Assembly (NCBI GenBank): GCA_963632375.1
Contig: CAVGUB010000111.1
Location: 15,913-79,912 of the forward strand
Direction of reading: 5' to 3'
Length of the DNA: 64,000 nt
Origin: Phocaeicola dorei
GTDB lineage: Bacteria; Bacillota_I; Bacilli_A; RFN20; CAG-826
A program made the position numbers and the translations under genes. Positions 1 through 64,000 of this stretch are shown here, in pieces (position 1 is the first letter of the stretch; each line of letters opens with the position of its first letter). The notes below the pieces were generated by a model that saw nothing but the letters and a program-made list of their open reading frames with translations, did no database searches and had not been told where the DNA came from.

Positions 1-1
1 A

Positions 2-838
2 TTATATGTAGTGATGAAAAAGTTTGATTGTACTTATGGTAAAGCATTGTTAATTGCTGCCAATGATTTTGGACTAGTTCCTAATTCTAAATTAGAGAAG
101 AATCCAATAACAATACAAACTACAACAATTCCTATAAATAAGCAATCTCGAATTCAAGTAGAAATACGTGAATTTCAAAAATATGAGTTAGATTGATGAA
201 ATTCTTATGGAATTACAGAAAATACCTTAAAGAAATTTAAGGTGTTTTCTTGTAAAAATATATGACTTAATGGAAATCTATTTCATATTGAATCGCCTAA
301 TCAAAGAATTTTTGGTTATTATGGTGGTACAAAAGATGGAATAGAATTATGAAGACTTTATTTTGTTGGAAGAAAAAAGTTTAAATTTCTTTCAAATTGA
401 AGTGCTTCTAAAATACAAGGCGCTAAAATGCTTCCTAAGACAGGTGGTGATATTTTAGTTATTACTAAGTCTTTAAAAGATGTAATGGTTTTATATGAAC
501 TAGGGATTCCTGCTATTGCTCCAAATAGTGAAAATCTATTTGTTACAGATTTGCAATATAAAAAACTTTCAGAAAAGTTTAAGGATATTATTGTATTGTA
601 TGATAATGATTTAGCAGGTATTTGTGGTATGCGTAAAATTAAACGACAATATCCCAAAGTAAAAGTAATGTATATTCCTAGAAGATATGAAGCAAAAGAT
701 ATTTCAGATTTTTATAAAAAATACGGTAAAGATAAAACTCTGAAATTAATTGATATGGCTAAACAATATTATTTATGTCCAAAAAAAGATCTGGCGCATA
801 CAATCGAAACCGAGGAATTAGAGCTGAGCAAAAAGTAA
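2..838 (+). CDS. DNA primase, TOPRIM domain (5' end probably outside the window); 5 in-frame TGA read as Trp
   Basis: The frame is open from the window edge. Track ORFs 11..196 and 428..838 are in one frame and are separated only by TGA at 194, 197, 263, 350 and 398. TOPRIM-like GGDILVITKSLKD and IVLYDNDLAG motifs are present. No zinc-finger part is visible. TAA stop at 836. Confidence 0.7.
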
Positions 839-1176
839 TAAATGAATTAAAAGAACTTGGATTTGATAAAGTAATGTCTTCTAGACAGGGTTCTAAAATA
901 ACAGATGATAATAAAGTCGATATTTTAGATACAGAACATCAATTACCATTTGGTATGAATATTCAAGTAAAACATCAAATAGCTTACCCACAATATTTTA
1001 AAATTAGAGAACAATCAACCGTTCCTAATGATACTTTTGTCATTATATGGGATAAACAAGAAACAAAAGAAAAAAATATTGTAACAGTAGGCAGATGTGC
1101 TATATTAGATTTAAGTTTATTTTATAAATTGATTGAGTTTTATGGAAAAAGCAAAAGTAACATTCAGGGATCTTAA
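775..1176 (+). CDS. PD-(D/E)xK nuclease, Holliday-junction-resolvase-like (motif-level call)
   Basis: ATG start and TAA stop; overlaps the primase 3' end by 64 nt. RGIRAEQKVINELKELGF ... VDILD ... IQVKH resembles the E / D / (E,Q)xK core of Hjc-type resolvases. Confidence 0.5.
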   Translation: MSKKRSGAYNRNRGIRAEQKVINELKELGFDKVMSSRQGSKITDDNKVDILDTEHQLPFGMNIQVKHQIAYPQYFKIREQSTVPNDTFVIIWDKQETKEKNIVTVGRCAILDLSLFYKLIEFYGKSKSNIQGS

Positions 1177-1339
1177 TACCGAGAACGAGATTTATGTTAA
1201 TCTCGAATTTGATTCTGAAAAGGAAACTCTTGATTATACTGTAGATTTGAACGATAAGTATAACAAGGATAGTAAATTGGATTTTATTGGAATTTTGGCT
1301 GATTATTTTTTGAAATCATTAGAAGATAAAAGCAATTAA
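1142..1339 (+). CDS. hypothetical protein (65 aa)
   Basis: Track ORF 1133..1339 with the first ATG at 1142. Its TAA stop overlaps the next ATG (TAATG). Confidence 0.5.
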   Translation: MEKAKVTFRDLNTENEIYVNLEFDSEKETLDYTVDLNDKYNKDSKLDFIGILADYFLKSLEDKSN

Positions 1340-2538
1340 TGGAATCAATTTATCCATTACTTTCTACAAGTTTTAGAGAAAAATTAAATGATCTACATAC
1401 AAAATATCCTGATAATAAAATACTTATCGATATTTTAAAAGCAGATGATATTATAGAAAGTAATAAAACATCATTTTCATCAGAAATTAAAGAACAATTA
1501 GGATTAATTATAACTGATTTTGGAAGAATGGTAACATTCCGAGATAGTTCTGAATTAATATCATTTCTTCCAAAAGGAAAGTTACCTATATATAATGAAA
1601 ATGGTAATTGGTCTACTAAAAATAGACAATGCAGTAAACCTGCAAAATTTTTTCAAAAATTGTTAGTACACAAATACACTTGTAAAGAGTTTGAAGATTT
1701 TTCTAACCTAATCAAATATGAAATTCTAAATACATTTGAATTTAGAATAGTTACAGGTGAAGATGTACGAAAATATTATAATGAGGACACTTACTATAAA
1801 AGTACGGGTACATTAGGTGCTAGTTGTATGCGATATAATGTTTGTGCAGATTATTTTAACATATATGTTGATAAAGCCCAAATGTTAGTAGCATTTAAAG
1901 GTGATAAAGTAATAGGAAGAGCATTACTTTGGACTTTACACGATGGAAGTATTTTTATGGATAGAATTTATTATTGTTTTGATTGGTTAGAATCAACATT
2001 CATACAATATGCAAAACATAATAAATGAATAATTAGAGTTAATAATGATATTCTTAACGATGGACATTATCTTTTAGTATTAACTAGTTCTGATGATTAT
2101 AAAGAAGCAATCACATTACGTGAAGAAATTCAATTAGATAAAAAATATAGAAAGTATCCTTACATGGATTCTTTTAGATATTTTAACACAGAACAAAACA
2201 TTATTAAAACTTATCCAGAAGATTATCAACGTAATTTAAGTTATTCATTAGGTGAACTTCCTGAACAAATAACATATACTTGTGCCCATTGTGGACAACA
2301 AGAAGTAATTGATTGCACCCAGGATTTAAACATGGTTTATAGCTGTTATAATGATTGTTATTATTGTGAAGAATGTGCTTGGTATTGTAATATATTAGAA
2401 GATTTCTTTGCAATAGACTCAATTTGTCCTGTATACGATGCCACTGGTTCTAGGTATTATTTACCACTAAATTGGCTAGAATCACAAGACAATGATATGG
2501 CTATAAAGAAAAATGATAAATGGGTTTTCATAGATTAA
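1339..2538 (+). CDS. hypothetical Cys-rich protein (399 aa), one in-frame TGA at 2026
   Basis: Track ORFs 1339..2028 and 2164..2538 share a frame. I read 2029..2163 in frame with no TAA/TAG. The C-terminal part has paired Cys motifs (CAHCGQQ ... CYYCEEC ... C) suggesting a zinc-binding module. Confidence 0.6.
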
Positions 2539-2542
2539 TAAA

Positions 2543-3304
2543 ATGTCAAATATTAGATATGATCTAATTCCTTCGCAAGGAATTACCGAAGTAAGTAAAA
2601 TATTTACTAAAAAGTTAGAGAAATACGGAATCAATGATTGGAAATATGGTATTTCTTGGACAAAAGTTTTATCTTCATTAAAGAAACATCTTACTGAATT
2701 TGAACAAGGTAATGATTTAGATGAAGATAACTTGCTACAAATTGCACATGTTGCGGAAGAAGCATTAATTCTTTGCGAGTATTATAAAATATACCCGCAA
2801 GGAGATGATCGTTTACTTGGTAACATTTCTGCTCCTAGAATATCATTGGATATTGACGATGTTTGTTTGGATTTTATTCCTGCTTTTGAGAAAAAGTTTC
2901 AAATAAAATTAAACAATTATTGGGACGGTTCATATTTAATGAATCAAATGTTGGATAAAGTAAAAGACGATAAAGATTTTTGGGTCAATTTACCCGTAAA
3001 GAATCTTCCTACATTTAATCCAACTTGTTATATCACTAGTAGAAGCATTTCAGTTGAATGGACTAAAGAATGTCTGGAGAAAAATGGTTTTCCTTGTGCT
3101 CCAGTATATTGTGTTCCATTTAATGAAAGCAAAGTTGATTTACTTAAAAGTAATAATATAAATATACACATTGATGATAAAGTTCAAAATTATCAAGAAG
3201 CGACTACTGCTGGTATATTTTGTTATTTAATGGATGCCCCACATAATCAGTGGTTTAAAGTTCCTCAACATCGTAGAATATATGATCTTAAATTAAACAT
3301 TTAA
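2543..3304 (+). CDS. fusion of a dATP/dGTP pyrophosphohydrolase-like N-domain (DUF5664-like) and a HAD-family 5'(3')-deoxyribonucleotidase
   Basis: The N-terminus (RYDLIP ... KYGINDWKYG ... LKKHL.EF.QGNDLDEDNLLQIAHVAEEALILCEYY) fits the DUF5664 pattern. The C-terminal half has a DxDxV nucleophile motif (LDIDDVCLDF) and a TSR ... IDD layout typical of NT5C-type nucleotidases. Confidence 0.65.
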   Translation: MSNIRYDLIPSQGITEVSKIFTKKLEKYGINDWKYGISWTKVLSSLKKHLTEFEQGNDLDEDNLLQIAHVAEEALILCEYYKIYPQGDDRLLGNISAPRISLDIDDVCLDFIPAFEKKFQIKLNNYWDGSYLMNQMLDKVKDDKDFWVNLPVKNLPTFNPTCYITSRSISVEWTKECLEKNGFPCAPVYCVPFNESKVDLLKSNNINIHIDDKVQNYQEATTAGIFCYLMDAPHNQWFKVPQHRRIYDLKLNI

Positions 3305-4347
3305 TGGAACAAGTTAATTTAAAAGATTTTAAAATAATTCCAATCCTTGATAGTTTAAAACAAGCTAAAATAAGTGATGAAGAATATTTTAGTAAAAAAT
3401 ATAGTAATTACGTATCTAATTCCCGATTAAAGAATATTGATCCTACAAGAGGTGGTTCTCCTGCACTATATAAAAATCCACCTAAGTTTAGTACAACTTC
3501 ATTAGCAATTGGAAGTTGTGTTCATGAAGTAGTACTCCAACCAGAATCATTCAAATTGCTTCCTAAACAAGGTAAACCGTCTGCAAAATTGGGAACTTGC
3601 ATTGATTATATTTTTAAATATAGAAAGGAAGGTAATTCAATAAAAGACTCTATTATAATGGCAAGTAACTCAGCATCTTATTATGCTGGAAAACTATCTG
3701 ATTCTAAAATCAAAATGATTATTAAAAAAGGTTTGCCTTATTATTTAAATCTTTTGAAATTGGAATTGAAAGATGGAGATATCCTATTGAGTGATACTGA
3801 TTGGGATGTGGCAACATCTTGTATCAATTCTTTAAATAAGAATCTTGTTATTATGAATAAATTGCATCCAACAACAGTGTTTGATGAAATAATCCCATCA
3901 TATAATGAAGATGCAATGTTCATTGATTTTTGTGTTATGTATAAGGATAGAGCGACTATTCTGAAATATAAAATGAAAATTGATAATTGGACAATAGACG
4001 TTGACAATAAGAAGATTACATTGAATGATATAAAAACAACCCGAGACAATCCAGACTATTTTATGGCTCCTGGAGCACACTTTGATCATTATAGATATGA
4101 TATACAAGGTGCGTTATACGGAGATATTCTCAAGTTGTATTGTATGCAAAAATACGGATACAACGAAGATGACTGGACTTTTGAAGTAAACTTTTTAGCA
4201 GTTAAAAACAATTATCCATTTAATAGTAAATGTTGTAATATGAATTCTTATCTATATAATCGAGGTAAAATATCTTACCAAAATTTATTAAAAAGAGTTG
4301 CATATTATGAAATATTTGGATACGATAAAGAAGTAGAATTTGTTTAA
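3304..4347 (+). CDS. putative PD-(D/E)xK exonuclease (RecE / exonuclease VIII-like); function uncertain
   Basis: 347-aa ORF coupled by TAATG to the previous gene. Its N-terminal SNSRLK ... AIGSCVHEVVLQPE pattern resembles phage recombination exonucleases. The CDS is confident; the function is weak. Confidence 0.5.
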   Translation: MEQVNLKDFKIIPILDSLKQAKISDEEYFSKKYSNYVSNSRLKNIDPTRGGSPALYKNPPKFSTTSLAIGSCVHEVVLQPESFKLLPKQGKPSAKLGTCIDYIFKYRKEGNSIKDSIIMASNSASYYAGKLSDSKIKMIIKKGLPYYLNLLKLELKDGDILLSDTDWDVATSCINSLNKNLVIMNKLHPTTVFDEIIPSYNEDAMFIDFCVMYKDRATILKYKMKIDNWTIDVDNKKITLNDIKTTRDNPDYFMAPGAHFDHYRYDIQGALYGDILKLYCMQKYGYNEDDWTFEVNFLAVKNNYPFNSKCCNMNSYLYNRGKISYQNLLKRVAYYEIFGYDKEVEFV

Positions 4348-4350
4348 AAT

Positions 4351-4827
4351 ATGATAGTATATACATTTAAAGCAACAACTGATGAAGAGGCTAAACAGAT
4401 AGCCTCTGAAAATTATAATACGACTGTTATTTCGACATTTGATTATAAACAATTTTCTAAAGTAACAACTGAAGAATTGGCATCAAAGTTAAATCTTACT
4501 CCGAATCCAGGAGAAGGTATTCTTACTATGAGTGAAAAAGCTCCAACTGTATCAAGAGTAAATCCTTATAATCTTGAAAATGTAGTTACAGAAGGCGCTT
4601 GTTCAAAGAAGCTTGTCTATGAGATTCTTGATTCGGAAGGTAAAATATATGACAGTGAGGAATCAAAGAAGGATGCACTAAAGAAAGGTAAAGAACTAAT
4701 CAAACAACTCAATAAAGACCTTATTTGTAAAAAAGTATATAGAGTTGATCCTGAGCACGAAGTTGCATTTAGACTAACATATACTCCTCATAAAGCGGAG
4801 AATACTTATACGTTATTTAGTTACTAA
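4351..4827 (+). CDS. hypothetical protein (158 aa)
   Basis: Uninterrupted ORF with ATG start and TAA stop, tightly packed between neighbouring genes. Confidence 0.7.
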   Translation: MIVYTFKATTDEEAKQIASENYNTTVISTFDYKQFSKVTTEELASKLNLTPNPGEGILTMSEKAPTVSRVNPYNLENVVTEGACSKKLVYEILDSEGKIYDSEESKKDALKKGKELIKQLNKDLICKKVYRVDPEHEVAFRLTYTPHKAENTYTLFSY

Positions 4828-4835
4828 TTTTATTA

Positions 4836-5138
4836 ATGTATCGTTTAGATAACGCTCTCACAAAATCTAATATCATATATATGATCATTATTGATACTCA
4901 TTTTTATATAGGGAGTACATCAAGACCTTTAAAAGAGAGATTAAGAGAGCATAAAAGATTATTATCAAAAGATAAACATTATAATAAAAAGATGCAGAAT
5001 TGGTTTAATTTAAATAAAGAATTCACAGTACAAGTAATGGAAGAAACTTCTAGATTTTGTTTGTGTGAAAGAGAACAATATTGAATCAATCTCCTACATC
5101 CAGATATTAACATTATTAACAAAGTAGCGGTATATTAG
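4836..5138 (+). CDS. free-standing GIY-YIG nuclease domain protein (100 aa), one in-frame TGA at 5082
   Basis: IYMIIIDTHFYIGSTSRPLKERLREH ... EREQY-TGA-INLLHPDINIINK. The GIY / YIG / R / H / E elements are present, and the TGA falls where GIY-YIG proteins carry E..(Y/F)W. It terminates at TAG 5136, directly before ATG 5140. Confidence 0.7.
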
Positions 5139-5139
5139 T

Positions 5140-5934
5140 ATGCAGATCACTTATGATGCTTTAATGTTAGGCAAACCAACCATCATTAAGGATAAACAAT
5201 TTCTTGCAACTAAGGATTATGTAGAACCTTTCTTTGAGTTTTTTAAATCTTTAACAGATAACTTTGAAATTCATGTAGAAATGCCAGAACAGGTTACAGG
5301 TTCAATTGATGCTAAAGATATTACATATAATAAAGTATGGTGTCAGGCTATTTTACCTCTAAATACTCAGTATTATGATCCAAAATTTGAGTATAATGAA
5401 GTATATGGTTTGATTTATTCTCTCGATGCTAAAATTCCAGAGATTAAATACTATCGAGCATATCAACACAAGACATTCAAAAATCTTTGTGTATTTGAAC
5501 CAACTTGGATTCAAACCCAAGAATTGAAACCTGAAGTAAAATATGATTATAATTTTAAAGAATTGTTGAGTAAACCAGAAACATTTTCTTCAAAATTAAA
5601 AAGTATTAAAAATACTTTCATAAAGCCAAATGAGTTAACCCCACTATTGGGTAAACTTATTGAAAAGTCATTACTTTATGATTATCAAAGTATTTCGAGT
5701 AAAGTTCAAATTGCATCTAAAGATATAGTTAAAGCATATCGTTTGGTAACATTGAAACCAACATCTAATTATTATGTTGATTCATCTACTGAAGGTTCTT
5801 TACATAACTTTTATTCTGCAGTTTGTTCACAAATAACTGAAGGTAAAGATATTATTTATAGATTTGAGAAAACCATTCTTGTAGGAATATTATTTGGAAT
5901 TATTAAATATGAGAGTAATAACAAAGCGGAATAA
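5140..5934 (+). CDS. hypothetical protein (264 aa)
   Basis: Uninterrupted ORF with ATG start and TAA stop; its 3' end overlaps the nrdD start. Confidence 0.7.
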   Translation: MQITYDALMLGKPTIIKDKQFLATKDYVEPFFEFFKSLTDNFEIHVEMPEQVTGSIDAKDITYNKVWCQAILPLNTQYYDPKFEYNEVYGLIYSLDAKIPEIKYYRAYQHKTFKNLCVFEPTWIQTQELKPEVKYDYNFKELLSKPETFSSKLKSIKNTFIKPNELTPLLGKLIEKSLLYDYQSISSKVQIASKDIVKAYRLVTLKPTSNYYVDSSTEGSLHNFYSAVCSQITEGKDIIYRFEKTILVGILFGIIKYESNNKAE

Positions 5935-8155
5935 AGAAGTAGAAGAATTTAATTTAGATAAAATTATACTTGCAATTAATAAAGCGTTTAGAAGTTCCGG
6001 ATTTGATACATGGGTTAATGAAGATAAAGTTGATGTCTTTGAAAGAATAAATGAACTTTTAATCGAATCTATAAATAAACTTTATGAAAGCAAAGACGTT
6101 GTTAATGTAGAAGACATTCAAGATTGCGTTGAAACAATTCTAATGCAATGTAAATGTTTTTCTGTTGCCAAGAGTTATATTCTTTATAGAGAGAAACATA
6201 ATGAAAGTCGATTTATCCAAGACAGATTGGATTATATGGACAAATATACTTCATCAGGAGATAATGCAGCAAGTTCTTCTGAAACAGATGCTAACGCAAA
6301 TGTTGCAATGAAAAATGTTGCAAATCTAGAAGGTGAAGTATACAAAGTACAAAATAGACTTGTTCAAAGAACAAGAATGAAGAAACGACTAAAAGAAATG
6401 TTTCCTGAAGTTGCCAGCGAATATGTCAAAGATTTGGAATCACATATTATTTATGCACACGATGAGGCAAGTTCACCAACAGTTAAAAACTACTGTATGG
6501 CAGCAACTCTATACCCACTTATGGTTGAGGGAACAGGAAATATTGATGGTGTAACACCAACTCCTCCAAACGATATTCAATCATTTAGTGGACAGGTTAC
6601 CAATTTAGTATTTCTTCTTTCATCTCAAGTACGTGGTGCTGTAGCTTTGGGTGATTATTTTGTAGCATTGAATTACTATGTAATTGCAGAATTTGGAAAA
6701 GATTGGTATAATCGTTTGAATGAAGTTACCACAACTAATACTTGTACAAAACAACGTACAATAAAAGATGCTATACGAAAAGGTATGAAACAATTTATCT
6801 ATGGAGTATCTCAACCAGCTGGTAATCGTTCATATAATTCACCGTTTAGTAATCTTAATTTCTTTGATAGTAATTATTTTGCAAGTATTTTCGATGAATT
6901 TCGTTATCCAGATGGCACTAAACCAGAATGGAAAGCGATTGATTCTTTACAAAGAATTTTTCTTGAACTTCATAGAGAATTGCGTTTAATTAAACCTTTG
7001 ACTTTTCCGGTAACAACGATGTGTTTACTAACTGATGGTAATGATATTGTTGACAAAGAATATAAAGAATTGTGTGCAGAAGAACTTTCTAAAGGAAGTA
7101 GTTTCTTTGTTTATTTAAGTGATTCTGCATCAAGTATCTCAAGTTGTTGTAGAGTTCGTAATGAAATTTCAGATAACACTTTTAGTTCTACAACAGGTTT
7201 GACCGGAATTATGACCGGATCTTCTAACGTTATCTCATTGAATTTCAATAGAATAGTACAGAATTGGTATAATTATATTTCTTGTGATGTTGAAGCTTGT
7301 GATAAGATAGGTAAAGCATCTCCAGAGTTTATTGGAAGTATTTTGACAACTGATAAAGAACTACAACAATCTTTAAAAGATTATTTGATTTCAATTCTAG
7401 AAAGAGTTTATAAATATCAAATTGCTTTTAAATCACTACTGTATGATATGGAAGACAAAGGTATGTTTTCTAGTTCAAATGCAGGATATATTTATACCAA
7501 AAAGCTCTTTAGTACAATTGGATTTATTGGATACTGTGAAGCTGCAGAATTTCTTGGCTATAATGTCAATTATAATCAATCTTATATAAAATTCGTACAA
7601 TTGTTATTGAGTACAATTGAGGAACAAAATCGAATTCATTCAATACATGATAAAAAACGTCCATGTATATTCAACAGTGAAGGTATCCCTGGAGAACAAT
7701 TAGCTGTTAAATTTTATAATTGGGATAAAAACGATGGTTATAAAGTTCCAGAAGATCAAAACTTATATAGCAGTTATTTCTTTAAACAATGGGATGATAA
7801 AATTTCTGTTCTAGATAAATTACGTTTACACGGAAAAGAAATTGCATCATATTGTTCAGGTGGTCAAGCCGCACATATTCATTTGGATTCACATCCATCT
7901 AAAGAACAATATTTACATTTACTTGAATTTAATGCTAAAAACGGAGTTAGTTATGTTGGATTCAATATTCCTATTAGTGAATGTAAAGATTGTGGACATG
8001 TAGTAAATGCTCCAATTAAAGAATGTCCTATTTGTGGAAGCAATCATATCGATTATTGGATAAGGATTATTGGGTTCCTTCGACCTTTAAGTTCTTATAG
8101 TAACGAGCGATATAAAGAAGCAAATAAAAGAATTTTTTCACATATTAAAGATTAA
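5909..8155 (+). CDS. nrdD: anaerobic (class III) ribonucleoside-triphosphate reductase
   Basis: ATG at 5909 begins an ATP-cone (MRVITKRNKEVEEFNLDKI). There is a C-terminal Zn-ribbon (CKDCGH ... CPICGS) followed by the glycyl-radical motif RIIGFLRP. The protein is long (748 aa) and contains no TGA. Confidence 0.9.
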   Translation: MRVITKRNKEVEEFNLDKIILAINKAFRSSGFDTWVNEDKVDVFERINELLIESINKLYESKDVVNVEDIQDCVETILMQCKCFSVAKSYILYREKHNESRFIQDRLDYMDKYTSSGDNAASSSETDANANVAMKNVANLEGEVYKVQNRLVQRTRMKKRLKEMFPEVASEYVKDLESHIIYAHDEASSPTVKNYCMAATLYPLMVEGTGNIDGVTPTPPNDIQSFSGQVTNLVFLLSSQVRGAVALGDYFVALNYYVIAEFGKDWYNRLNEVTTTNTCTKQRTIKDAIRKGMKQFIYGVSQPAGNRSYNSPFSNLNFFDSNYFASIFDEFRYPDGTKPEWKAIDSLQRIFLELHRELRLIKPLTFPVTTMCLLTDGNDIVDKEYKELCAEELSKGSSFFVYLSDSASSISSCCRVRNEISDNTFSSTTGLTGIMTGSSNVISLNFNRIVQNWYNYISCDVEACDKIGKASPEFIGSILTTDKELQQSLKDYLISILERVYKYQIAFKSLLYDMEDKGMFSSSNAGYIYTKKLFSTIGFIGYCEAAEFLGYNVNYNQSYIKFVQLLLSTIEEQNRIHSIHDKKRPCIFNSEGIPGEQLAVKFYNWDKNDGYKVPEDQNLYSSYFFKQWDDKISVLDKLRLHGKEIASYCSGGQAAHIHLDSHPSKEQYLHLLEFNAKNGVSYVGFNIPISECKDCGHVVNAPIKECPICGSNHIDYWIRIIGFLRPLSSYSNERYKEANKRIFSHIKD

Positions 8156-8161
8156 AATATT

Positions 8162-8512
8162 ATGAAACTTTCAGTAGTAAATACACGATTTGTTGTTAAT
8201 GAAGAAAAAAGAACAGTTGCTTGTATATGTGACTGTCGTTTTAAATATATTGTATTTGGCTCATATAAGAATGAGCCGTTCAATGTAACAGCAGTTGCCA
8301 AATGTCACACAAACGACAAATTTGATGTAGAGCTTGGCAAGAAAATTGCACGTGCTAAAGCTGAAAACAAAGCATATCAAATTTGTGCACTAGAATGTAA
8401 GTTGTACAAAAAACACTTAAACAGAGCTTTGGAAAACTTTACAGAGTTTGAAAGAAAAGCAAATAAATGTATTGAACACAATAAAGGATACATTGAAAGA
8501 ATTTCTGAATAA
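8162..8512 (+). CDS. hypothetical protein (116 aa)
   Basis: Uninterrupted ORF. The AKCHTNDKFDVELGKKIARAKAENKAY pattern recurs in small phage proteins of unknown function. Confidence 0.7.
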   Translation: MKLSVVNTRFVVNEEKRTVACICDCRFKYIVFGSYKNEPFNVTAVAKCHTNDKFDVELGKKIARAKAENKAYQICALECKLYKKHLNRALENFTEFERKANKCIEHNKGYIERISE

Positions 8513-8655
8513 TGGAAATTGATTTATTTGAAGAAATAAATAAGTATTATCAAACTGTAGAAGGTACAAATATTTCATATCAAGAAATATTTAATGTACT
8601 TTCTACAACATTTGATACTGTTTATTATATTACAACAATAGCATCTTATATATAA
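8512..8655 (+). CDS. small hypothetical protein (47 aa)
   Basis: Below the track cutoff. The ATG overlaps the upstream TAA, and its own TAA overlaps the next ATG (TAATG at both ends), which fits the local coupling pattern. Confidence 0.35.
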   Translation: MEIDLFEEINKYYQTVEGTNISYQEIFNVLSTTFDTVYYITTIASYI

Positions 8656-8849
8656 TGTATATTTGGCTTATCTTTTCCATTTTATGTTTTATTAGATGTA
8701 TATTTTATTTAAAATCTGGATTAAAAGATTATAAACTGTACTATTCTATATACAAATCTAAGTTTCTTTTAGTTTTGATTTGTTTTTTCGAGGTAATGTT
8801 GTATTTAACCCTTAGTTTAGTTGGTTTATATTATTTTATTATTGGATAA
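8655..8849 (+). CDS. small membrane protein (64 aa, two hydrophobic segments)
   Basis: Track ORF with hydrophobic stretches (IWLIFSILCFIRCIF and LLVLICFFEVMLYLTLSLVGLYYFII); TAATG junctions on both sides. Confidence 0.5.
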   Translation: MYIWLIFSILCFIRCIFYLKSGLKDYKLYYSIYKSKFLLVLICFFEVMLYLTLSLVGLYYFIIG

Positions 8850-8965
8850 TGAAAACTGGAAAAAGAAAAATTCATTTAAGAAAATTTAAAGACTTTAAAC
8901 GATGATGAAAGTCTTTAACAAGTTATGAAAAAGATAAAATTTTAAATGGAACAAAAAGAATTTAA
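8849..8965 (+). CDS. small basic hypothetical protein (38 aa) with two in-frame TGA
   Basis: The ATG overlaps the upstream TAA. It reads MKTGKRKIHLRKFKDFKR-WW-KSLTSYEKDK under code 4. Speculative. Confidence 0.3.
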
Positions 8966-9098
8966 AGTTGATTATATGGATTTCAATGGAGAGGTAAATG
9001 AATTGTACTTCAAAACTTTGTATAATGCCATAAAATATATAGAAGACAACAATTTATTTGCCTCCATTGAATTTTTAAATAAACCTTTAAATAAATAA
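8946..9098 (+). CDS. small hypothetical protein (50 aa)
   Basis: ATG 8946 to TAA 9096; fills an otherwise unannotated gap. Confidence 0.35.
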   Translation: MEQKEFKVDYMDFNGEVNELYFKTLYNAIKYIEDNNLFASIEFLNKPLNK

Positions 9099-9102
9099 AA
9101 TT

Positions 9103-9501
9103 ATGGGATTGGATAATGGATTCCTTATTCGAAAGATGAATAAGGAAGATATGAAAAAAGCTCCTTATTATAAGGAGAGCTGGTATAACCCAGAATCAGA
9201 ATCATTTGAACCTATTTATTGGAGAAAATGTTATAATCTTCGTGAAGCTGTATTTAGAGTTCTTCATGGGGAAAGAAACGATGTTTATGAGTATCAAGTA
9301 AAATCTAATGATATTCCTGAATTAATTGAAAATTTGAGACCATTCTTGAATAAGATTTATTGGGATAATCACGATGATTGTATTTGGGAATATGATGAAA
9401 TGTTTGACGAAATGTATAGGACGTTAGTATTCCTTGAATGGTTCCAATCTTATTATAAAGAACATCCTGAAATTGAAATGGTCTTTTACGATTCATATTA
9501 A
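9103..9501 (+). CDS. hypothetical protein (132 aa)
   Basis: Uninterrupted ORF; its TAA overlaps the nrdG ATG (TAATG). Confidence 0.7.
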   Translation: MGLDNGFLIRKMNKEDMKKAPYYKESWYNPESESFEPIYWRKCYNLREAVFRVLHGERNDVYEYQVKSNDIPELIENLRPFLNKIYWDNHDDCIWEYDEMFDEMYRTLVFLEWFQSYYKEHPEIEMVFYDSY

Positions 9502-9998
9502 TGTTAAAATATACAGATACAATGGTCACATTTAGTGAATTTCCAGATGAAATTTCACTATGTATAAATATTTCAAATTGTCCATGTAAATGTCCTGGTT
9601 GTCATTCTAGTTATCTTGCTGAAGATATCGGTGAGATACTAGATACAACTAGTTTGAAAACATTACTAGATAAGAATGAAGGAATTACTTGTTTAGGATT
9701 TATGGGTGGAGATAATTCTCCTAAAGAAGTTTCAAAACTAGCAGAATATGTTAAGAACAATTACAACATAAGAGTTGGTTGGTATTCTGGTAGACAAGAA
9801 TTATCTCCAGATATAGATCTCAAGTATTTTGACTATTATAAATTAGGTCCTTATGTCGAAGAATTTGGCCCTCTTAATAATCCAAAAACAAATCAAAGAT
9901 TTTTTGCACGAGGTTCATTGCTTCATAAAATGGATGCAAATCCAATTGTCTTTTATGATATCACCGACAAATTTTGAGTAAATGATAAAAATTTATAG
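9501..9998 (+). CDS. nrdG: anaerobic ribonucleotide reductase activating protein (radical SAM)
   Basis: CPCKCPGCHS cluster near the N-terminus, as in NrdG activases. A TGA at 9975 lies 7 codons before TAG 9996. Under code 4 the protein ends at 9998; if this TGA terminates, the end is 9977. Confidence 0.85.
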
Positions 9999-10197
9999 AA
10001 AAGAAGGTTGGATTTTGAATCCAAAAGACAATGTTGTAAATAGTATTTTGCAACGTTGTGAAAGTAATGATGGAATTTGTCCATGTAAACACCCCGATAA
10101 TGATGGGGATTTACATTGTCCATGTGAAAGTTATAGATTAAGAGATAAATGTTGTTGTTCTTTATATATTAAAGAAAATGGAAATATGGATAATTAA
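9982..10197 (+). CDS. ferredoxin-thioredoxin reductase catalytic-subunit-like protein (FTR/FDR-like, 71 aa)
   Basis: The CPC ... CPC ... CCC spacing (GICPCKHPDNDGDLHCPCESYRLRDKCCCSLY) matches the CPC-CPC-CxC cysteine signature of FTR catalytic subunits. Confidence 0.6.
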   Translation: MIKIYRKEGWILNPKDNVVNSILQRCESNDGICPCKHPDNDGDLHCPCESYRLRDKCCCSLYIKENGNMDN

Positions 10198-10369
10198 TTA
10201 CACAGATAATTGTGTAGATAAATATGTTGTTCCTGAACAAGAAAATGTTCAAGAATATATCTATAATAGTTTGAACTATGAAGGTAAAGATATATCATGG
10301 ATTTCAGATGATAAACCTATAGTTCGAAATACTTATTATTGGACAAAAGAAGGAATTAAAAAATCATAA
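10178..10369 (+). CDS. hypothetical protein (63 aa)
   Basis: ATG-initiated ORF overlapping the previous gene by 20 nt; TAA stop. Confidence 0.5.
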   Translation: MEIWIINYTDNCVDKYVVPEQENVQEYIYNSLNYEGKDISWISDDKPIVRNTYYWTKEGIKKS

Positions 10370-10370
10370 T

Positions 10371-10802: not shown

Positions 10803-10814
10803 AAATTAAATATT

Positions 10815-11306: not shown

Positions 11307-11313
11307 AATATAT

Positions 11314-11341
11314 AGCTAGGGAGAAATCCCTAGCTTTTTTA
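11314..11341 (+). terminator. rho-independent terminator
   Basis: AGCTAGGGA-gaaa-TCCCTAGCT 9-bp stem followed by TTTTTT, 8 nt after the stop at 11306. Confidence 0.7.
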
Positions 11342-11343
11342 TT

Positions 11344-54800: not shown

Positions 54801-56294
54801 AGCTTCAGTTGCTGATAAAAATCCTTCTGTAAAAAACATTCCGGTTTTACCATCATCATCAAGCTCGTATAACATAGGAATGTAACTAACTCCATCGATT
54901 CCAAGTGCTAAACCTTGCCCTAATGTATTAGCAATACGTTTTTGTCTTACTAAGAAATATCCTTTTACACCTAATTCTTTTAATTCTGAAATAACTAAAT
55001 CATCTAATTCAAAATTAAAATACAAAGGTTTTACGGTATTATTTGAATAATTAATTACTTGGTACTTAGGCAATTTAAATACACCAAATGTATTGTTTAG
55101 ATACTTTTCATTTGTAATAAAAGTATCTCTTTCATATTCTTCAGTTGATTCTAAATTAATATCGTTGTCTTGATTTATATCTGTAAATTCACAACCTTTT
55201 AAGTTAAAAACAGGTGTTAATGAATTATCATTTAAAATATAAACTATACCCAGTCTATAAATTTCATCAGGTCAATATCCTAGTCTATAATAATTATTCC
55301 ATGGCGAATAGTATTCTGTACGAGATTGATCGTCCTCAACATTATAACTATAATCAGAAGAATTAATTCAGCCAATACTTTCAGAAGATTGTTTTAATGT
55401 AACTTTTACTTTATATGATCATTTTTGTAATTCAGCAACATTTATATTATTCTTCTGAACATTACCAAAAAAGAGCATATTTTGTACTTGTGCTTCTGTT
55501 TTAGCCGCAGTAATTAAATTATATTGGATATTTAATTCATTTACAGTAACCTCTACGGTATCTTCATAACCCGTGATATTTACTAATTCTGTTTCAGAAT
55601 TGAACTTAATAGGGTCTTTCAACTGCATTGCTTCTATTTGGCTAACCCCATTTGTATCACTAAATTCCCTAGTATAATACAAATATATTCTTGAATAACT
55701 TTTATCCAAATTTGATATTCTTAACGAAATCGTTTTATCAGTCACCTCATTTTGCATGGTACCGACTATAGAACCTATATTAGAAACCGTGCCTTTGTAA
55801 ATAATAATTTGTCCTGATTCGGTTAAGAAATTTGTTTTATTATCATCTTCATCAGATAAACGTAAATAAAATGTATATATACCACCTTTTAATTGTCCAG
55901 AAGTTTCAACTCCATTTAAATCAATCACCGGGAAACAATCAGTACTCTTAATTAGCCTAGTTGTTTCATCAATATTTTCTTCTTTATAAAGATTTGTTTG
56001 ATTTATTTGATTCCTCTTTATTATCTTGAATCGATTATCTTCAATTTTTGAAAAACGTGTATTTATAATTCTAGGTGGATTTAAATCATCTGTCATAAGA
56101 AGATTAACTGTACCATCATAAGATGGTTGGCATTCAATCGAAACAGGATGATTCAAATCACCTAATTTGAAGTTTTTTATGGTAAACCCCTTTATAGATC
56201 CATCACTTTCTAAAATGTTTTGTAATGCACTATAAGTATGTGAAAAAGATCCTTCGTTGGGGTATTTATATATGTTAAATTTAATCGTACCCAT
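51801..56294 (-). CDS. large tail/structural protein (1497 aa), family not recognised; about 14 in-frame TGA
   Basis: Track ORFs 52215.., 53076.., 53748.., 54315.., 54774.. and 55419.. share a frame, joined only by TGA. ATG is at 56294 (in-frame TAA at 56307) and TAA stop at 51801. Confidence 0.75.
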
Positions 56295-59200
56295 TATTTT
56301 TTCAATTTAAAATGATTTCAATCATCATTTGTTTCTCCTATGTAAACACCCATAAGTTTTTGATCCTCATCTTTATATCCAACAACAGCGCCATATAATA
56401 ACCTATCACTTACTCACAAACTACTATCCTTATTTCAATTAAGTATATCCAAAATATATTTTTGTGTTGGTTCTACAATTCCACTTTGAGATTTATCGTA
56501 ATAATATGAACTGCCTGCATATAATGTTGTTTGATAAGAATCCGAAGTACATTGTTTATATTCAGTGTTAATTTTTGAATTTAAATTTTCAATTTCAGCT
56601 TTTATATTAACGAGTGATTCTTCTAACGAAGCCTTATTTGATAAACTAACATTGATTTCGGTATTGATAGAATCAAGAGTTATTGAATTTGGAAGAGTAG
56701 CTAATGTACTAACATGACTTAAATTATACGTATTTAGATCTGATAAATTTTCATCATTGGTTAATGCAAAAATATATTTATTACGTGACGTTTTATCTAT
56801 TAAATCAAAGCCTTCATAAGAGTATTTAACATTACCCATATTAATTTCTCCATCTAAAGATATATTATTCACCATTTGTTCTAATTTTAATGTAGGTGAA
56901 TTCAACGTAATAAATGAGCCATATACAACATGCTCATCATATGTCACTTTAATGAAATTCGATTTAAGTTTTTCAAAAAATGTATTTCAATTTGATTCAG
57001 CTTTATCGTCTTTTGTATCATCCCATTTTTGATTATCTGCCGAATAAAACACATAAAAAGGTGTATTGTTAGGACTTCTTAAAGTAATGCAATATAAGTG
57101 AATATTGTATTGTAGATTAGGCTGATATGCATGGGTTGCTTTTTGTGTCTCTGATTCCGCATCTCCACTAAAATTTCCAGGATAATAAAATGACATAGCT
57201 CAACAATTACTCTTTTCCGCAGCAATATTGAATGTAAAGATATTACATTTAATAATGTCATACGTTTGAAGATAATGTAGGAGAATATTATTTATATTAC
57301 TTGAAGAATCTGTATGATCATTATAAACACTAGAGGTTCCTTTTGGAACTTTTATAGATCATGTAGTATCAGCTCGGGTATCTCCTTGAAGAGTTAAATT
57401 AAAAGTAATTCCTTTATAAGCGTCTGATTTAAATGCGATATCACTTACGTAAGTACTGATTGTTAAAGGTGCTGTAGAAATATCATTTACCGTATAATCG
57501 CACAATTCCAATGTTCGAAGAATATTTGGCGTATATGTAATTTCCTTTGAATACTCATTTTCAATAGTTCTAGAATATATAGAACTTCCATCAGTTTTTT
57601 GTAAAGACCCTGTATATTTATCAAAATATAATTTTTGAGTAGAATCAAACGAATCAGTCAAAACAGCACCTTCCAATATAGAATCTCAAAGTGGACCATT
57701 CAACATTTTTACATCAGAATCACAATGTAAATTTAAAGTATAAGGAATACTTCAACGTAAATTAACTGATTTCCCTAAATCTCCAACTACATCAGAATCA
57801 ACAAATGTTTTATATTTTGTTATTGATCCACCATTTTTCCAAGCTAAATAAGCAGCGTTTTCTTCAAACTTCACATCGTCCTCACTCGCTACTTCATAGG
57901 ATTCTAGTTTTATTGTTTTGTTTTTTACATAGTCTTTATACTTATTAAACCAAGTATCAAACGGGATTTCATCATATTTAGCATCTTCAAAATCATTCAT
58001 TATTTCTGATGCTATAATTACTTTATATATTGTTTTCTTTATATAGTTTTCAAAATTCGCAATATCATCATCTGGAATTTTTTCACAGATATCAAAACGA
58101 ATACGATAGATGTTTTCAGGAAACAAATAATTTCATTCATCAATATAATGTCCAAACATTTCTACATGAACATAAGGAACCATTGAAATAGTTTCATTTG
58201 TATCAAATCCGTCTTTATTTCACGCCGCACAATAAAGTCTGTATGCTTTAGCTTCTGTTACAGTTCCGTCTTCAGCAGTAAATTCCATTCCAGTATAAAC
58301 TGGCTCAAATTGGGACGTTTTCTTATTGTATGCTTCAATAGTGTAATATAACTCAAGATTATCTTTTTGAGAAATTGAGTTAACTCCAAATGTATCAAAA
58401 TAAAGTGTTAGCGTATTAGAATTAGAATCAACTGTATATTTTCATGTTTGTGTTCCAATATTAATGTTATCGATACTGTTCATATTTTTCAAAACAAAAC
58501 TATATGATTGCCGCATATTATCATATACCATTTCTTTTAATATAGGAACAGCTTCAATCCTTATTTTTGAATCTGGCGTACATTCATCAAAATTAAAAGA
58601 TGTTGTAGCAATATATGATTTTGCTTTATTATACAAAGTGTATTCCCCATTTTCATTTAATGAAATAGTTTCTTCCTTTTTAAGTACATCATCGAGATAG
58701 ACTTCGTATTTTATTTGTAAATCTTCCCTAATTTTTGAAAAATCAGTACTTGTAAAAAGATTATCATAAGTTTGAATTGCAAATTTTATAATACCTGAAA
58801 CAGAACCATATGTGTGTCCTTCTTTATCGGTTTTTGTAAAAACATCTGTATTCAAAACAGGTGTAGTGATAAAGAAAGAATTTAATTCAGCGATTCTGTT
58901 TCTAATAATAAATCAACCAGGAATTTGTCAGGTTACTTTATGAGCTTCTTTACTTATTTTGACTTTATCAGAAATATCAAAAAGATTTTTATCAGAATCA
59001 AGAATATAATATTTAAGTTCTTGATATTCTGAATCTTCAACATCAAGTTCTAAAGAATACTCATCATTTGGATTTATAACATAATCATTAGTAAAAGGAT
59101 AAAAACTAATGTTTTTAATTTGTTTAATTAAGTCTGTATAATTACCTTTTAACTCAATTGTTTCAATATCTTGGGTATCTAACGGTTGTTCTACACGTAC

Positions 59201-59497
59201 ATCAGTTTTCGTAGAAGGATACGAACCTATTTCTGTCTCTTCCGTTAAAGGGTTGTATGAAACTATATATAAAATTCCTGCATATTCTTTTAAACCAATG
59301 GGAATAAATCCTTCTTTCAATTTACAGTTTGACAATGGATAATTACCCATATCGTTTTGTAAACTAAATTCATTTCCATTATATGTTATAATTGTTCCAT
59401 TTAAACAATCTGTAAGTACGTTGTTAGGTACATTAATCGGATTTAAATCCTTGATCATACCTTCTGATCATTGATTTTGTGCGGATTTTCTACCCAT
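56294..59497 (-). CDS. large tail/structural protein (1067 aa), family not recognised; about 14 in-frame TGA
   Basis: Track ORFs 56435.., 56987.., 57359.., 57752.., 58442.. and 58928.. share a frame, joined only by TGA. ATG is at 59497 (in-frame TAA at 59498). TAA at 56294 overlaps the next ATG. Confidence 0.75.
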
Positions 59498-61905: not shown

Positions 61906-61928
61906 TTATTGATATATCTTAGTTAATG

Positions 61929-62738
61929 TTATGCTTGTTCAGGAGCAGGTGCAGATTTAAAGGTGCCAAATGCAGCTTCAAACTCTTCTTTAACACTTTC
62001 CGGTACATAGAACACATGAGTAGTAAGAGATTCTACAACCTGATTTACACCTGAAAGGCCACCGGGAACAGCTTTTGCAACTCTATATTGGAATGAGTAC
62101 ATATCATAAATCTGACCAGCAACAGGAGCTTCGTCTGCAAAGAGTGCAGAATATCTCATGTTTGGATATGAAGGGAAACGAAGGTTCTCACGAATCCACT
62201 CACCGGTTGCGAACGGAACGATACTAGATTTGATGTCAACAGCTCCAAGAGAAGAAACTTCCTCAGCACCAGCTTCAAGCGGTTTTACCTTCTCGTAATT
62301 AACTTCTGCAAAATCAAGATAAGGATCTGCAACTGTAAGAACAATGTTTTCACCCTCTACTTCAACTTTGAAAAGCTCATTACCAGGATTCAAAGCAAGC
62401 TCAATTGCTTTCTTTAAACCTGCTGCATCCTCAGCAGCTGACTCTACAATAACAGGCTTACCAAATTCCATATAATCAGGAAGTGCATACTCTGCAAACT
62501 CTCTTCTTGCATGAACAAAAATAGAAAGTCTTGCAACATATCCATCCTCTGGTTTAACGAATGCAAAAGTAGCAGTACCCGCTACACCTTCAACACCTTT
62601 TGCTACATACTTACTCTCACTATCAATTTTGTCAAGAACATATTTACCTGCTCTTTTTACAACGACTGCCGTATCAGCATCAACTTTCTTAATTAATCCC
62701 TTTTTGTTAAGGATTGTTTCGTGTATATAATTAAACAT
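61929..62738 (-). CDS. abundant virion structural protein candidate (269 aa), family not recognised; no TGA
   Basis: Uninterrupted ORF that is visibly more GC-rich, with different codon choice from its neighbours, and is immediately followed by a strong terminator. This fits a very highly expressed structural gene. Confidence 0.8.
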   Translation of the reverse strand: MFNYIHETILNKKGLIKKVDADTAVVVKRAGKYVLDKIDSESKYVAKGVEGVAGTATFAFVKPEDGYVARLSIFVHARREFAEYALPDYMEFGKPVIVESAAEDAAGLKKAIELALNPGNELFKVEVEGENIVLTVADPYLDFAEVNYEKVKPLEAGAEEVSSLGAVDIKSSIVPFATGEWIRENLRFPSYPNMRYSALFADEAPVAGQIYDMYSFQYRVAKAVPGGLSGVNQVVESLTTHVFYVPESVKEEFEAAFGTFKSAPAPEQA

Positions 62739-62752
62739 AATTTATTTTCAAT

Positions 62753-63649
62753 TTAGGATTTTTGAATACTTTGTTGAGCATATGCTTGTTGCATTGTATT
62801 GGAAATTGTGTTGTTTATAGGGATTACAGTTTGTAATCTTGGATCACTAGCATTTTCCATAACCAATCTAACAAGTATATTTATAATCTCAAAACAAACA
62901 TAATCTGGAAACTCTACAGTTTGTGAATTATCAACTGTATCGTCTATTTGGTCTTGTGTAAGATGAATATGCATTGGAGATTTTATATAGTCCACATAAA
63001 TATGTTTTGGCTCATATAAAGAAGTATCTCCCAATCTTAATTCCATTAAAACATCTTGAGAATTAGAACATCTGGAACCTTTTTCTTCGGTAGTATAAAT
63101 AAATGGATTTTTCAAATTTTCCAATGTATTTTCAATACTACTTTCAAGATCCTCGCCTTTATTTCCTCATTCTGTTTTGTTGTTTGTATAATTCAAATAA
63201 TAATAAGGTCTTTTATAAGACGGCTTCATGTATGCATTACCTATTATTGATGAAAACATGTCTGAAGTAAGCCTTCTTGCTGTGTAATATACTTGTGAAC
63301 CTTCTTTAATGCACCCTTTATTATTTGAAGCTTCATATTCAACTATACAATTAAGTAAATGCATATAATCCGAAGGTAATTTCACGTATCAAGAATTACT
63401 TAACATTCCTTCTGTTCCTAGTTCTGGTCTGTATTTATCAAATTTTTCAGGAACTAAAACGGTAGTTGCTTTTAAAACACGAATGTCATCAGTAGATTGT
63501 TGATCGATCTCCGATTTACTATACACAAGATTTATATATTGTTGAATCGCTTTATTAAGTAAATAATTAAAGTCCTCTATAAGTAAACTAGGGGCTTCCA
63601 ACTTATTTAATTCTATTAAAGTAAATTCATAAATGTCCCTAGAAGTCAT
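62753..63649 (-). CDS. virion-module protein (298 aa); 2 in-frame TGA
   Basis: Track ORFs 62753..63124, 63167..63385 and 63389..63649 share a frame; the junctions are TGA at 63167 and 63389. Confidence 0.75.
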
Positions 63650-63664
63650 TAATTGTTATTACTT

Positions 63665-64000
63665 TTATTTTGTGCCTTTTTTAGATGTAGAAGATGAAGC
63701 TTTTGCAATTTTTTCCTCCAATACATCTACCGGCGCAAATTCTGGATAAGTTTCAAATTTAATCTGGTCGAGAATAGCTTTACTTGTAGGCATTTTAAAG
63801 AACATGATTGTGGCATCATCCGTAGCACCAAGTACGGTATCAGAATACATAAACATACCATTTGTTCTTCTAATTACACCTCTTGCCTTTGCATCGATCA
63901 AAAGCAATTTAAGAGCCATATCTCCACTTGTATAAAGATCAATTATTTGATCTGGATTCTTTTGAGCAATCTGATAAAGATAATCCTCTACATCTGATGC
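63665..64000 (-). CDS. virion-module protein, 5' end probably beyond the window
   Basis: Track ORF 63665..63919 has its frame still open to position 64000 (ASDVEDYLYQIAQKNPDQIIDLYTSGD precedes the ATG at 63919). The alternative start is 63919. Confidence 0.6.
   Translation of the reverse strand, partial: ASDVEDYLYQIAQKNPDQIIDLYTSGDMALKLLLIDAKARGVIRRTNGMFMYSDTVLGATDDATIMFFKMPTSKAILDQIKFETYPEFAPVDVLEEKIAKASSSTSKKGTK

Follow-up and report, generated by a model that had tools for sequence, protein, structure and literature searches.

How are the genes to be read on a 64,000-nucleotide stretch of contig CAVGUB010000111.1 (assembly GCA_963632375.1, filed under Phocaeicola dorei), many of whose open reading frames (ORFs) fall to pieces under the standard genetic code? 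An earlier note made from the letters of this stretch, which at its full length we call the window, had proposed that all of it is readable only if TGA encodes tryptophan (Trp, W), as in genetic code 4. We find that UGA is very likely reassigned from stop to Trp in this DNA, part of a crAss-like phage genome of about 143 kb, and that the decoder is most likely an opal-suppressor tRNA of the phage's own.

We delimited 41 tightly packed genes in the window (GC content 30%), 24 on the plus strand (1-19172) and 17 on the minus strand (19444-64000). They contain 147 in-frame TGA codons, 134 in the minus-strand and 13 in the plus-strand genes, close to the earlier hand counts of about 130 and 15. 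The proposal that only TGA interrupts the minus-strand frames was borne out: none of the 41 genes has an in-frame TAA or TAG, and we saw no frameshifts. Genes end in TAA (37 of 41) or TAG (4 of 41) and never in TGA; the three TAG stops that the earlier note had placed at 5136, 18511 and 59490 are indeed TAG. TGA as a terminator is also absent from four contigs discussed below (L347, L348, L350 and L351), while it makes up 10-23% of the stops in standard-code relatives (20/87 and 29/285).

Under the standard code (code 11), ORFs of at least 100 amino acids total 17.9 k codons, the longest having 756, and the minus-strand genes break into 151 TGA-bounded segments, 78 of which are at least 60 amino acids long, in keeping with the more than 70 fragments reported earlier. 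Retranslation with code 4, which had been suggested as a check, lengthened both the ORFs and the profile matches. With TGA as a sense codon the ORF total rises to 29.0 k codons and the longest ORFs reach 3367, 2985, 1559, 1501, 1496 and 1067 codons, from which we delimited proteins of 3366, 2981, 1558, 1497, 1480 and 1067 amino acids; reading TAG as sense gave no comparable gain in the window. From base composition, the chance of a 3367-codon frame free of TAA and TAG is about 1e-88. The highest TGA counts per gene are 25, 22, 20, 18, 15 and 14. The claim that the whole window needs recoding holds for such TGA-rich genes but not throughout, as 20 of the 41 genes have no TGA and the region 775-19172 is almost compatible with the standard code. 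Of the 147 in-frame TGAs, 66 (45%) are followed by A, compared with 36% A at codon first positions and 33% after TGG, a marginal context bias (z ~2.3).

We asked which amino acid TGA specifies by masking each TGA as X and comparing the proteins with those of relatives whose own genes contain no in-frame TGA, which avoids circularity. The crAss muzzle protein (51801..56294, minus strand; 1497 amino acids, 15 TGA, 7 TGG) has 660 homologues in the protein collection; among the best 120 of these, W is invariant at six of the 15 TGA columns and prevails at another three, the others being aromatic or variable. One protein on record, P0001, which carries the Pfam matches PF25731 (crAss_MUZ) and PF25729 (crAss_MUZ_C), agrees with the window's muzzle protein outside the 15 masked positions and has W at all 15; the public collection in fact already holds full-length translations of this genome's recoded genes. 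Many of the best 120 homologues are themselves recoded, and we therefore moved the comparison to the DNA level. GenBank record MT835470 is a standard-code relative, with ORFs of 2970 and 2281 codons under code 11 and a muzzle gene without in-frame TGA; at the six invariant-W columns it carries TGG in five and TTT in one (residue 1084).

For an unbiased column test, 56 TGA columns of the window were scored against 28 standard-code loci from IMG/VR plus MT835470. The majority residue was W in 13 columns, F in seven, Y in six and G in two, so that 26 of the 56 were aromatic. The mean BLOSUM62 score per TGA column was highest for W (+1.29), followed by Y (+0.69) and F (+0.38), and was negative for R (-1.52), C (-1.85) and G (-2.04). 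Scoring 23 TGG columns gave the identical ranking of residues. The placement of TGA at conserved Trp columns is thus upheld, with W ranking first and aromatic residues dominating the majority residues, and the columns do not align mainly to C-termini or to residues unlike Trp, an outcome that would have spoken against the proposal. TGA and TGG also behave as interchangeable codons. Their sum per muzzle gene is roughly constant in recoded relatives (mostly 14-21, in a few up to 31), and standard-code relatives have 14-21 TGG per muzzle gene. With TGA counted as Trp, Trp makes up 1.28% of the residues encoded by the plus-strand block and 1.25% of those encoded by the minus-strand block. Among recoded relatives TGA and TGG replace one another at conserved columns, and between the window and a 93%-identical sister strain TGG/TGA flips occur at 1048-1050 and 2026-2028.

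Individual motifs that the earlier note had singled out largely agree. In the thioredoxin gene (13482..13736, plus strand; Pfam Thioredoxin, 2e-11), the TGA at 13515-13517 encodes the W of the W-CGPC active site (DNA: TGA TGT GGT CCT TGT), and relative L350 has TGG there. The ATP-dependent DNA ligase gene (11462..12649, plus strand) has a DNA_ligase_A_M match over residues 109-308 that spans its first TGA. Aligned to PDB 6imj, this TGA (11846-11848) lies in the adenylation domain, four codons before K133-I-D-G, just ahead of the KxDG motif as had been noted, and relatives carry TGG or TTC at this column. At the second ligase TGA (12617-12619), 10 codons before the stop, relatives have TGG or TTT, so this codon too is read through and is not a stop. 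The DUF192 gene (50103..50693, minus strand; syntenic genes are annotated DUF192) has TGA at 50643, 50535 and 50529. Here only half of the FWMK claim stood: the 50529 column is invariant W (in PDB 3m7a and 3pjy and in 25/25 standard-code relatives), but 50535 is not a conserved W; the PDB proteins have T or M at this column, and relatives have G. In tail ring protein 1 (60490-61191, minus strand; Pfam CrAss_Ring_1, 5 TGA), 27-29 of the 29 standard-code relatives have W at TGA columns 192 and 220. We conclude that TGA is a sense codon read as Trp.

The genes identify the element as a crAss-like phage (Crassvirales) and not as a code-4 organism. Muzzle, ring 1 and ring 2 are syntenic with the crAss families PF25731/PF25729, PF24228 and PF25702, and in relatives L003 and L004 the syntenic place upstream of the tail module is taken by Crass_capsid. 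The same proteins are found on contigs of 143,369 bp (NCBI) and 143,005 bp (European Nucleotide Archive, ENA), from which we take the window to be part of a phage genome of about 143 kb. The phage probably belongs to the Zeta group, a provisional assignment that we base on the size of the genome, the tRNA-rich early region of relatives, inserted homing endonucleases, intron density and the mixture of codes among relatives.

That mixture was evident when an alignment query of IMG/VR returned 80 muzzle loci: 45 had several in-frame TGAs, four had one, 28 had none and read in the standard code, and three were TAG-recoded with 32-44 in-frame TAGs, in agreement with published surveys (PMC7886860, PMC12386605). 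Sister muzzle lineages with amber recoding have 4-44 in-frame TAGs and no TGA (L007, L074, L078, L079, L314-L316 and L318-L320); L317 was also counted among the TAG-recoded relatives (L314-L320). One of them, L007 (MT835492.1, 99154-104239), comes from an unannotated record, and neither code 11 nor code 4 makes its muzzle gene readable. Apart from the sister strain, muzzle identity to the nearest IMG/VR and ENA relatives is at most about 56%; the first 25 kb of the window had no nucleotide match in the INPHARED phage collection, a PHROGs search recognized the muzzle protein alone, an exact 40-mer of the window was absent from the GTDB representative genomes, and a single-protein search of IMG/VR found no close relative, so that the alignment query was needed. 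The same genes and TGA pattern recur in independent assemblies (SRR13434610, ERZ15610559 and many IMG/VR contigs). The metagenome-assembled genomes (MAGs) into which relatives have been binned include ones from Faecalibacillus, Roseburia and Oscillospiraceae; for more distant relatives they include ones from Bacteroides and Alistipes.

A tRNA with anticodon UCA, which the earlier note had suggested seeking, lies outside the window, in a collinear sister genome. Two contigs extend the left end. L347, which Logan assembled from SRR13434610, matches window positions 1-5034 at 100% identity and reaches 7.5 kb further left. L351, from ENA contig NODE_96_length_143005, is collinear with the window without indels (about 93% DNA identity to the window lineage, 99% identity in PolB) and extends 17 kb left. 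A 73-nt tRNA occupies 3809-3881 of L351, 13.1 kb upstream of the window start and in the orientation of the early genes. Its anticodon loop reads CUUCAAA, its acceptor stem has 7 bp and its variable loop 5 nt, and the discriminator base is G73. This tRNA scored 55.3 bits against the Rfam tRNA model (threshold 29), and it was the only hit to a UCA-loop plus T-arm pattern among 352 loci scanned. G73 is an identity element for bacterial tryptophanyl-tRNA synthetase (TrpRS). ARAGORN labeled the tRNA 'SeC' owing only to its anticodon; bacterial selenocysteine (Sec) tRNAs measure about 90 nt or more, their variable arm is long and their acceptor stem has 8 bp, and the predicted fold of the L351 molecule has the size and arms of an ordinary elongator tRNA. 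Neither a phage release factor 1 nor a phage TrpRS was seen in the roughly 85 kb read. We propose that the phage carries its own opal-suppressor tRNA(UCA) about 13 kb upstream of the window, as its sister does, that the host's TrpRS probably charges this tRNA with Trp, and that the charged tRNA would compete with host release factor 2 (RF2) at UGA, leaving TAA and TAG as the sole terminators.

Beside the suppressor tRNA in L351 lie genes for a Cpn60/GroEL-like chaperonin of 533 amino acids without any Trp codon (L351 5420-7021) and an IMPDH/FMN-dehydrogenase-like protein (L351 2458-3444), about 10-14.5 kb left of the window. Elsewhere, approximately 250 loci from the virion blocks of relatives contained no tRNA. 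Walking about 50 kb upstream from the muzzle gene in the lineage of IMGVR_UViG_3300045988_171911, we met scattered tRNAs and then, at the head of the opposite-strand block, a dense array of at least 17 tRNAs including tRNA-Trp(CCA), with no tRNA(UCA) in the part reached. The relatives' own tRNA-Trp(CCA) has a U11-A24 pair in the D stem and sits between tRNA-Ser(UGA) and tRNA-Ala(UGC) (L325 19611-19683); it is identical in L329, L330, L335, L337 and L345, its 5' half is replaced in L342, and it is deleted in L324. A Hirsh-type mechanism, in which such a tRNA-Trp(CCA) with U11-A24 reads UGA, was set aside for this genome once a true UCA tRNA had been found; it may apply in related opal-recoded genomes reported without a detectable UCA suppressor. 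ARAGORN also predicted a 379-nt 'tmRNA' with the tag ANNIFSRIINKVETALFGDIEGVAL(M/I)AA in the early region of IMGVR_UViG_3300045988_171911-like relatives, on at least eight contigs (e.g., L288 19497-19875, L290 18105-18483 and L324 9128-9506); the prediction could be spurious, or it could mark a phage gene resembling a tmRNA. A conserved tRNA-like gene at L265 1241-1312 (minus strand; ARAGORN 'tRNA-???(tg)') recurs in the corresponding place on at least 12 related contigs. Its acceptor, D and T arms are normal, but its anticodon loop has 6 nt and its anticodon stem 3 bp.

TGA usage is far from uniform along this genome. TGA accounts for 17% of the Trp codons on the plus strand of the window and 73% on the minus strand (Fisher p = 5e-17), a contrast that resembles the published recoding of late genes, but the flanking DNA changes the picture. 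In the replication genes left of the window together with the primase (PolB-like, SNF2 and DnaB helicases), 30 of 41 Trp codons are TGA (73%), the same share as in the virion block at 19444-64000 (134 of 183, 73%), whereas an island of 23 genes at 775-19172 has only 8 of 71 (11%; Fisher p = 3e-11 against the replication genes and 5e-20 against the virion block). GC, GC3 and the AAA/AAG, GAA/GAG, CAA/CAG, TTA/TTG and AGA/AGG ratios are equal across replication, island and late genes, indicating that the island is not foreign in composition and is depleted specifically in TGA. Recent horizontal acquisition of the island was rejected on the grounds that its GC, GC3 and five A/G codon pairs match the genome and that it is conserved in relatives. 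In the syntenic contigs L348 and L350 (NrdD identity 71-73%), TGA-rich helicase genes are likewise followed by a TGA-poor island, which begins at the dGTP diphosphohydrolase gene. A second TGA-poor module surrounds the suppressor tRNA in L351, where the neighboring genes (IMPDH-like, AAA, Cpn60, MgtC and others) have about 3 TGA to 18 TGG (14%) and the replication module from RNase H to primase about 36 TGA to 12 TGG (75%). The most abundant virion protein also avoids the recoded codon in TGA-recoded relatives: the major capsid protein (MCP) gene has 0-1 TGA and 6-8 TGG, while neighboring virion genes use mostly TGA. These capsid-gene counts come from L004 (1-1437), L026, L153 (9989-11407), L092 (9998-11428) and L117 (9983-11410).

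The 73% share is close to the TTA/TTG ratio (0.72-0.74) and thus near the A-over-G bias of two-fold codons at 30% GC, so it looks like a neutral equilibrium. The low-TGA modules, as far as codon counts can tell, look like the product of purifying selection against UGA. TGA would then have drifted to about 73% of Trp codons in the DNA polymerase, the helicases, the primase and all large virion proteins, while selection would have kept two modules, the suppressor-tRNA neighborhood and the island at 775-19172, nearly free of it. The TGA-poor genes are presumably translated before the suppressor accumulates; alternatively, they may be expressed so strongly that partial termination, or competition with RF2, is costly. 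Tentatively, and short of calling it probable, we suggest that this phage alternates TGA-poor and TGA-rich modules in place of the published split into early standard-code and late recoded genes, and that the depletion reflects specific selection against UGA.

We weighed three other accounts of the in-frame TGAs. The DNA might come from, or the phage might infect, an organism with native code 4 (Mycoplasmatales- or Entomoplasmatales-like), the phage simply mirroring its host. The 30% GC, the lack of any TGA stop in 41 genes and the presence of TGA in replication genes, including the polymerase, would fit such a host, as would the binning of some distant relatives with 'Tenericutes' or Anaeroplasmataceae MAGs; those relatives, however, are TAG-recoded and not TGA-recoded. 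The genes are those of a crAss-like virion, the phage lineage has its own tRNA(UCA), and close relatives use the standard, a TAG-recoded or a TGA-recoded code, which is unexpected if a code-4 host clade dictates the code. Moreover, the 18-kb island and the suppressor neighborhood avoid TGA despite otherwise identical codon bias, which points to selection for translation without UGA decoding. Holdemanella and Faecalibacillus are not known to depart from the standard code. These two genera are the predicted hosts of the opal-recoded Zeta clade (PMC12386605), again at odds with a code-4 host, which we consider unlikely.

It is less probable still that TGA specifies glycine (as in code 25, which occurs in Gracilibacteria/Absconditabacteria and their phages), cysteine, arginine or Sec. 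In favor of such a reading are the 'SeC' label of the tRNA, the two of 56 TGA columns in which Gly is the majority residue, and the ambiguous Trp/Arg isotype that tRNAscan assigned to the Zeta tRNA-Sup-TCA (PMC12386605). The negative scores of G, C and R, set against that of W, contradict it, as do the best-conserved columns, which are invariant W (including thioredoxin WCGPC and the DUF192 W), and the TGA/TGG flips between 93%-identical strains. Glycine was rejected on its score of -2.04 and its majority in only 2/56 columns. Sec was rejected on the score of Cys (-1.85) and on a tRNA of 73 nt whose 5-nt variable loop and 7-bp acceptor stem are unlike those of tRNA-Sec; 147 Sec sites without selenocysteine insertion sequence (SECIS) elements are implausible in any case. 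The idea that the TGAs are not decoded at all, because the element is decaying or pseudogenized, because of assembly or sequencing artifacts, or because termination is programmed, has the least to recommend it. The 151 pieces into which the minus strand falls under code 11 would suit it, but TGA alone, never TAA or TAG, interrupts the frames, frameshifts are absent, the same pattern recurs in independent assemblies from several samples, the interrupted columns are conserved W, and catalytic motifs (ligase KxDG, thioredoxin CGPC and DxDxD) lie downstream of TGAs. This pattern of conservation already refutes it in practice, and we give it a negligible probability.

Some observations weigh against reassignment to Trp by a phage-borne suppressor. 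Residues at about half of the TGA columns are non-aromatic in relatives of 31-36% identity; TGG columns are equally non-aromatic, so these columns reflect weakly conserved positions. A few TGAs at gene ends (9975, 56318, 51794/51788 and 60485) could be stops or belong to mis-called starts, from which they are indistinguishable. ARAGORN and Rfam found no tRNA in the window, and the tRNA(UCA) is known from the sister genome only, the window's own lineage having been read to 7.5 kb left. We infer its charging with Trp from G73 and the protein alignments. Several related opal-recoded genomes have no detectable suppressor tRNA (PMC12386605). Finally, a standard-code host is likewise something that we infer, from the published host predictions and from MAG binning that points weakly to Bacillota such as Faecalibacillus.

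TGA->Trp recoding in crAss-like phages is already well documented, and the window phage adds a member to the group. Yutin et al. (2021) described 243 recoded crAss-like genomes (TAG->Gln or TGA->Trp), with recoding 'mostly in late genes', suppressor tRNAs, and Zeta branches that switch between codes (PMC7886860). A 2025 study of Zeta phages ('Lera' and relatives) found muzzle and ring genes under opal suppression, along with a tRNA-Sup-TCA (PMC12386605). The window phage resembles this opal-recoded group in having a large genome (143 kb, against 145-192 kb among group members), replication genes in a forward block and virion genes in a reverse one, TGA in muzzle, ring and putative RNA polymerase genes, homing-endonuclease and intron insertions, and sister clades that switch among TGA-recoded, TAG-recoded and standard codes. 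Going by its sister genome, it probably also has tRNA genes heading the forward block and a tRNA-Sup(TCA). Unlike in those descriptions, recoding here extends beyond the late genes: TGA takes as large a share of the Trp codons in DNA polymerase, helicases and primase as in the virion genes. The part compatible with the standard code is a nucleotide-metabolism island.

Borges et al. described TGA-recoded gut phages with suppressor tRNAs in 35%, called recoding of replication genes 'variable' and proposed a code-switch timing model for late genes (bioRxiv 10.1101/2021.08.26.457843). Their Jade, Sapphire and Agate phages resemble the window phage in being TGA->Trp gut phages of a presumably standard-code host, with the suppressor tRNA (here that of the sister genome) in a standard-code-compatible region, heavily recoded structural genes and a 'variable' use of the alternative code in replication genes; they belong to another phage lineage, whereas the window phage is crAss-like, showed neither release factor 1 nor TrpRS of its own in the roughly 85 kb read, and has a partition that is not simply early and late. 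The TAG->Gln (code 15) crAss-like phages belong to the same order and follow the same suppressor-tRNA logic with enrichment in virion genes, but differ in codon and amino acid. In the Mycoplasmatales and Entomoplasmatales, UGA is likewise Trp through anticodon UCA and only TAA and TAG are stops, but code 4 there is cellular and genome-wide, in contrast to the phage-borne recoding with TGA-avoiding modules seen here. The metaproteomic validation by Peters et al. (2022, PMC9523058) covers TAG->Gln only, and we found no peptide evidence for TGA->Trp in phages.

The remaining genes fill out the two blocks. The plus strand opens with the 3' part of a Toprim/DnaG-type primase gene (1..838; Pfam Toprim_2), the last gene of the TGA-rich replication module, which encodes 352 amino acids in full in L347 and L351. 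Its part in the window has five in-frame TGAs (194, 197, 263, 350 and 398) and no TGG, and relatives carry TGG at three of the five columns. The TGA-poor island follows (775..19172, plus strand), its 23 genes devoted mostly to nucleotide metabolism and containing 8 TGA and 63 TGG, with the TGAs at 2026, 5082, 9975, 11846, 12617, 13115, 13515 and 18597. Pfam matches in the island are dGTP_diPhyd_N, DUF3799/PDDEXK, GIY-YIG, NRDD with ATP-cone, Fer4_12 (NrdG-like), dUTPase, DNA_ligase_A_M, Thioredoxin, Thy1 (ThyX), DUF2201/vWA, AAA ATPase and DNMK (dNMP kinase). The TGA at 5082 lies inside the GIY-YIG match, and the sole relative aligned there also has TGA. The anaerobic ribonucleotide reductase NrdD (5909..8155, plus strand; 748 amino acids, Pfam NRDD 5e-75 plus ATP-cone) has seven TGG and no TGA, and is 100% identical to protein P0132 on record.

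On the minus strand, the 3' end of the late/virion block is formed by a gene for a 1558-amino-acid protein (19444..24120; 22 TGA, 11 TGG), homologous over 900 amino acids to standard-code MT835470. Next comes a giant protein of 3366 amino acids (24124..34224; 25 TGA, 9 TGG) with a DYDID motif at 28120-28134. DxDxD is the signature of the crAss-like RNA polymerase (PMC7886860), and from this motif, read in the translation, the protein is probably the crAss-type virion RNA polymerase. A second giant, of 2981 amino acids (34237..43182; 20 TGA, 6 TGG), has a Walker A motif, GSAGTGKT, at 38290-38313, and its homologues in L003 and L004 carry AAA_30/AAA_19. Two large virion proteins of 622 (4 TGA) and 1480 (18 TGA) amino acids (43191..49502) correspond to syntenic ORFs of similar size in L003-L005; the larger one contains a perfect threefold tandem repeat of the peptide SVPQSKVQP (46200-46274, minus strand). 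Upstream of the muzzle gene is a 1067-amino-acid virion protein (56294..59497; 14 TGA, 3 TGG), in which the TGA at codon 10 stands opposite F or W in every relative. Beyond ring protein 1 are tail ring protein 2 (61194-61862, minus strand; Pfam CrAss_Ring_2, 0 TGA) and virion genes of 269 (0 TGA), 298 (2 TGA) and 84 (0 TGA) amino acids (61929..64000, minus strand). Four virion or cargo proteins on the minus strand share a short motif, [KR]-[FL]-[QAS]-x-G-G, located at their N-termini or close by (45030-45047, 47442-47459, 49828-49845 and 51002-51019; MIIRKFAGGG, MYIKKLQEGG, LSKLQYGG and PSKFQNGG), which could be a processing or targeting signal.

Contig L001 reaches 2.1 kb beyond the right end of the window and places the last MCP exon 0.6 kb past it. 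In this genome, a 359-amino-acid ORF with a faint NUMOD1 (homing-endonuclease-like) match lies directly before the last 50 MCP codons (L001 232-1508, about 0.6-1.9 kb past the window). In several relatives (L003, L005, L013, L017, L028 and L052 examined) the MCP matches fall into two or three separate pieces. The major capsid gene seems to be split by insertions, in line with published accounts of Zeta crAss-like phages as dense in introns.

For annotation, the consequence is that code 11 destroys about half of the proteome of this contig, including all virion genes, and that translation table 4 is the correct one. The window represents one more opal-recoded crAss-like lineage, of a kind sparse in curated phage collections, with a clear candidate suppressor tRNA. 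What it adds is modest, namely the modular avoidance of TGA, replication genes recoded to the same degree as virion genes, and a specific suppressor candidate, and none of these findings overturns current understanding. A replication machinery as heavily recoded as the virion genes is at odds with the simplest early/late model. If the modules reflect a three-step programme of translation, or a measurable fitness cost of RF2 competition, this would refine the model of the code switch as a late-gene timer, and the timing or level of expression in uncultured recoded phages could be read from sequence alone. The sharply bounded and conserved TGA-poor island is a natural experiment that can reveal those phage genes whose translation has to work in an unmodified host.

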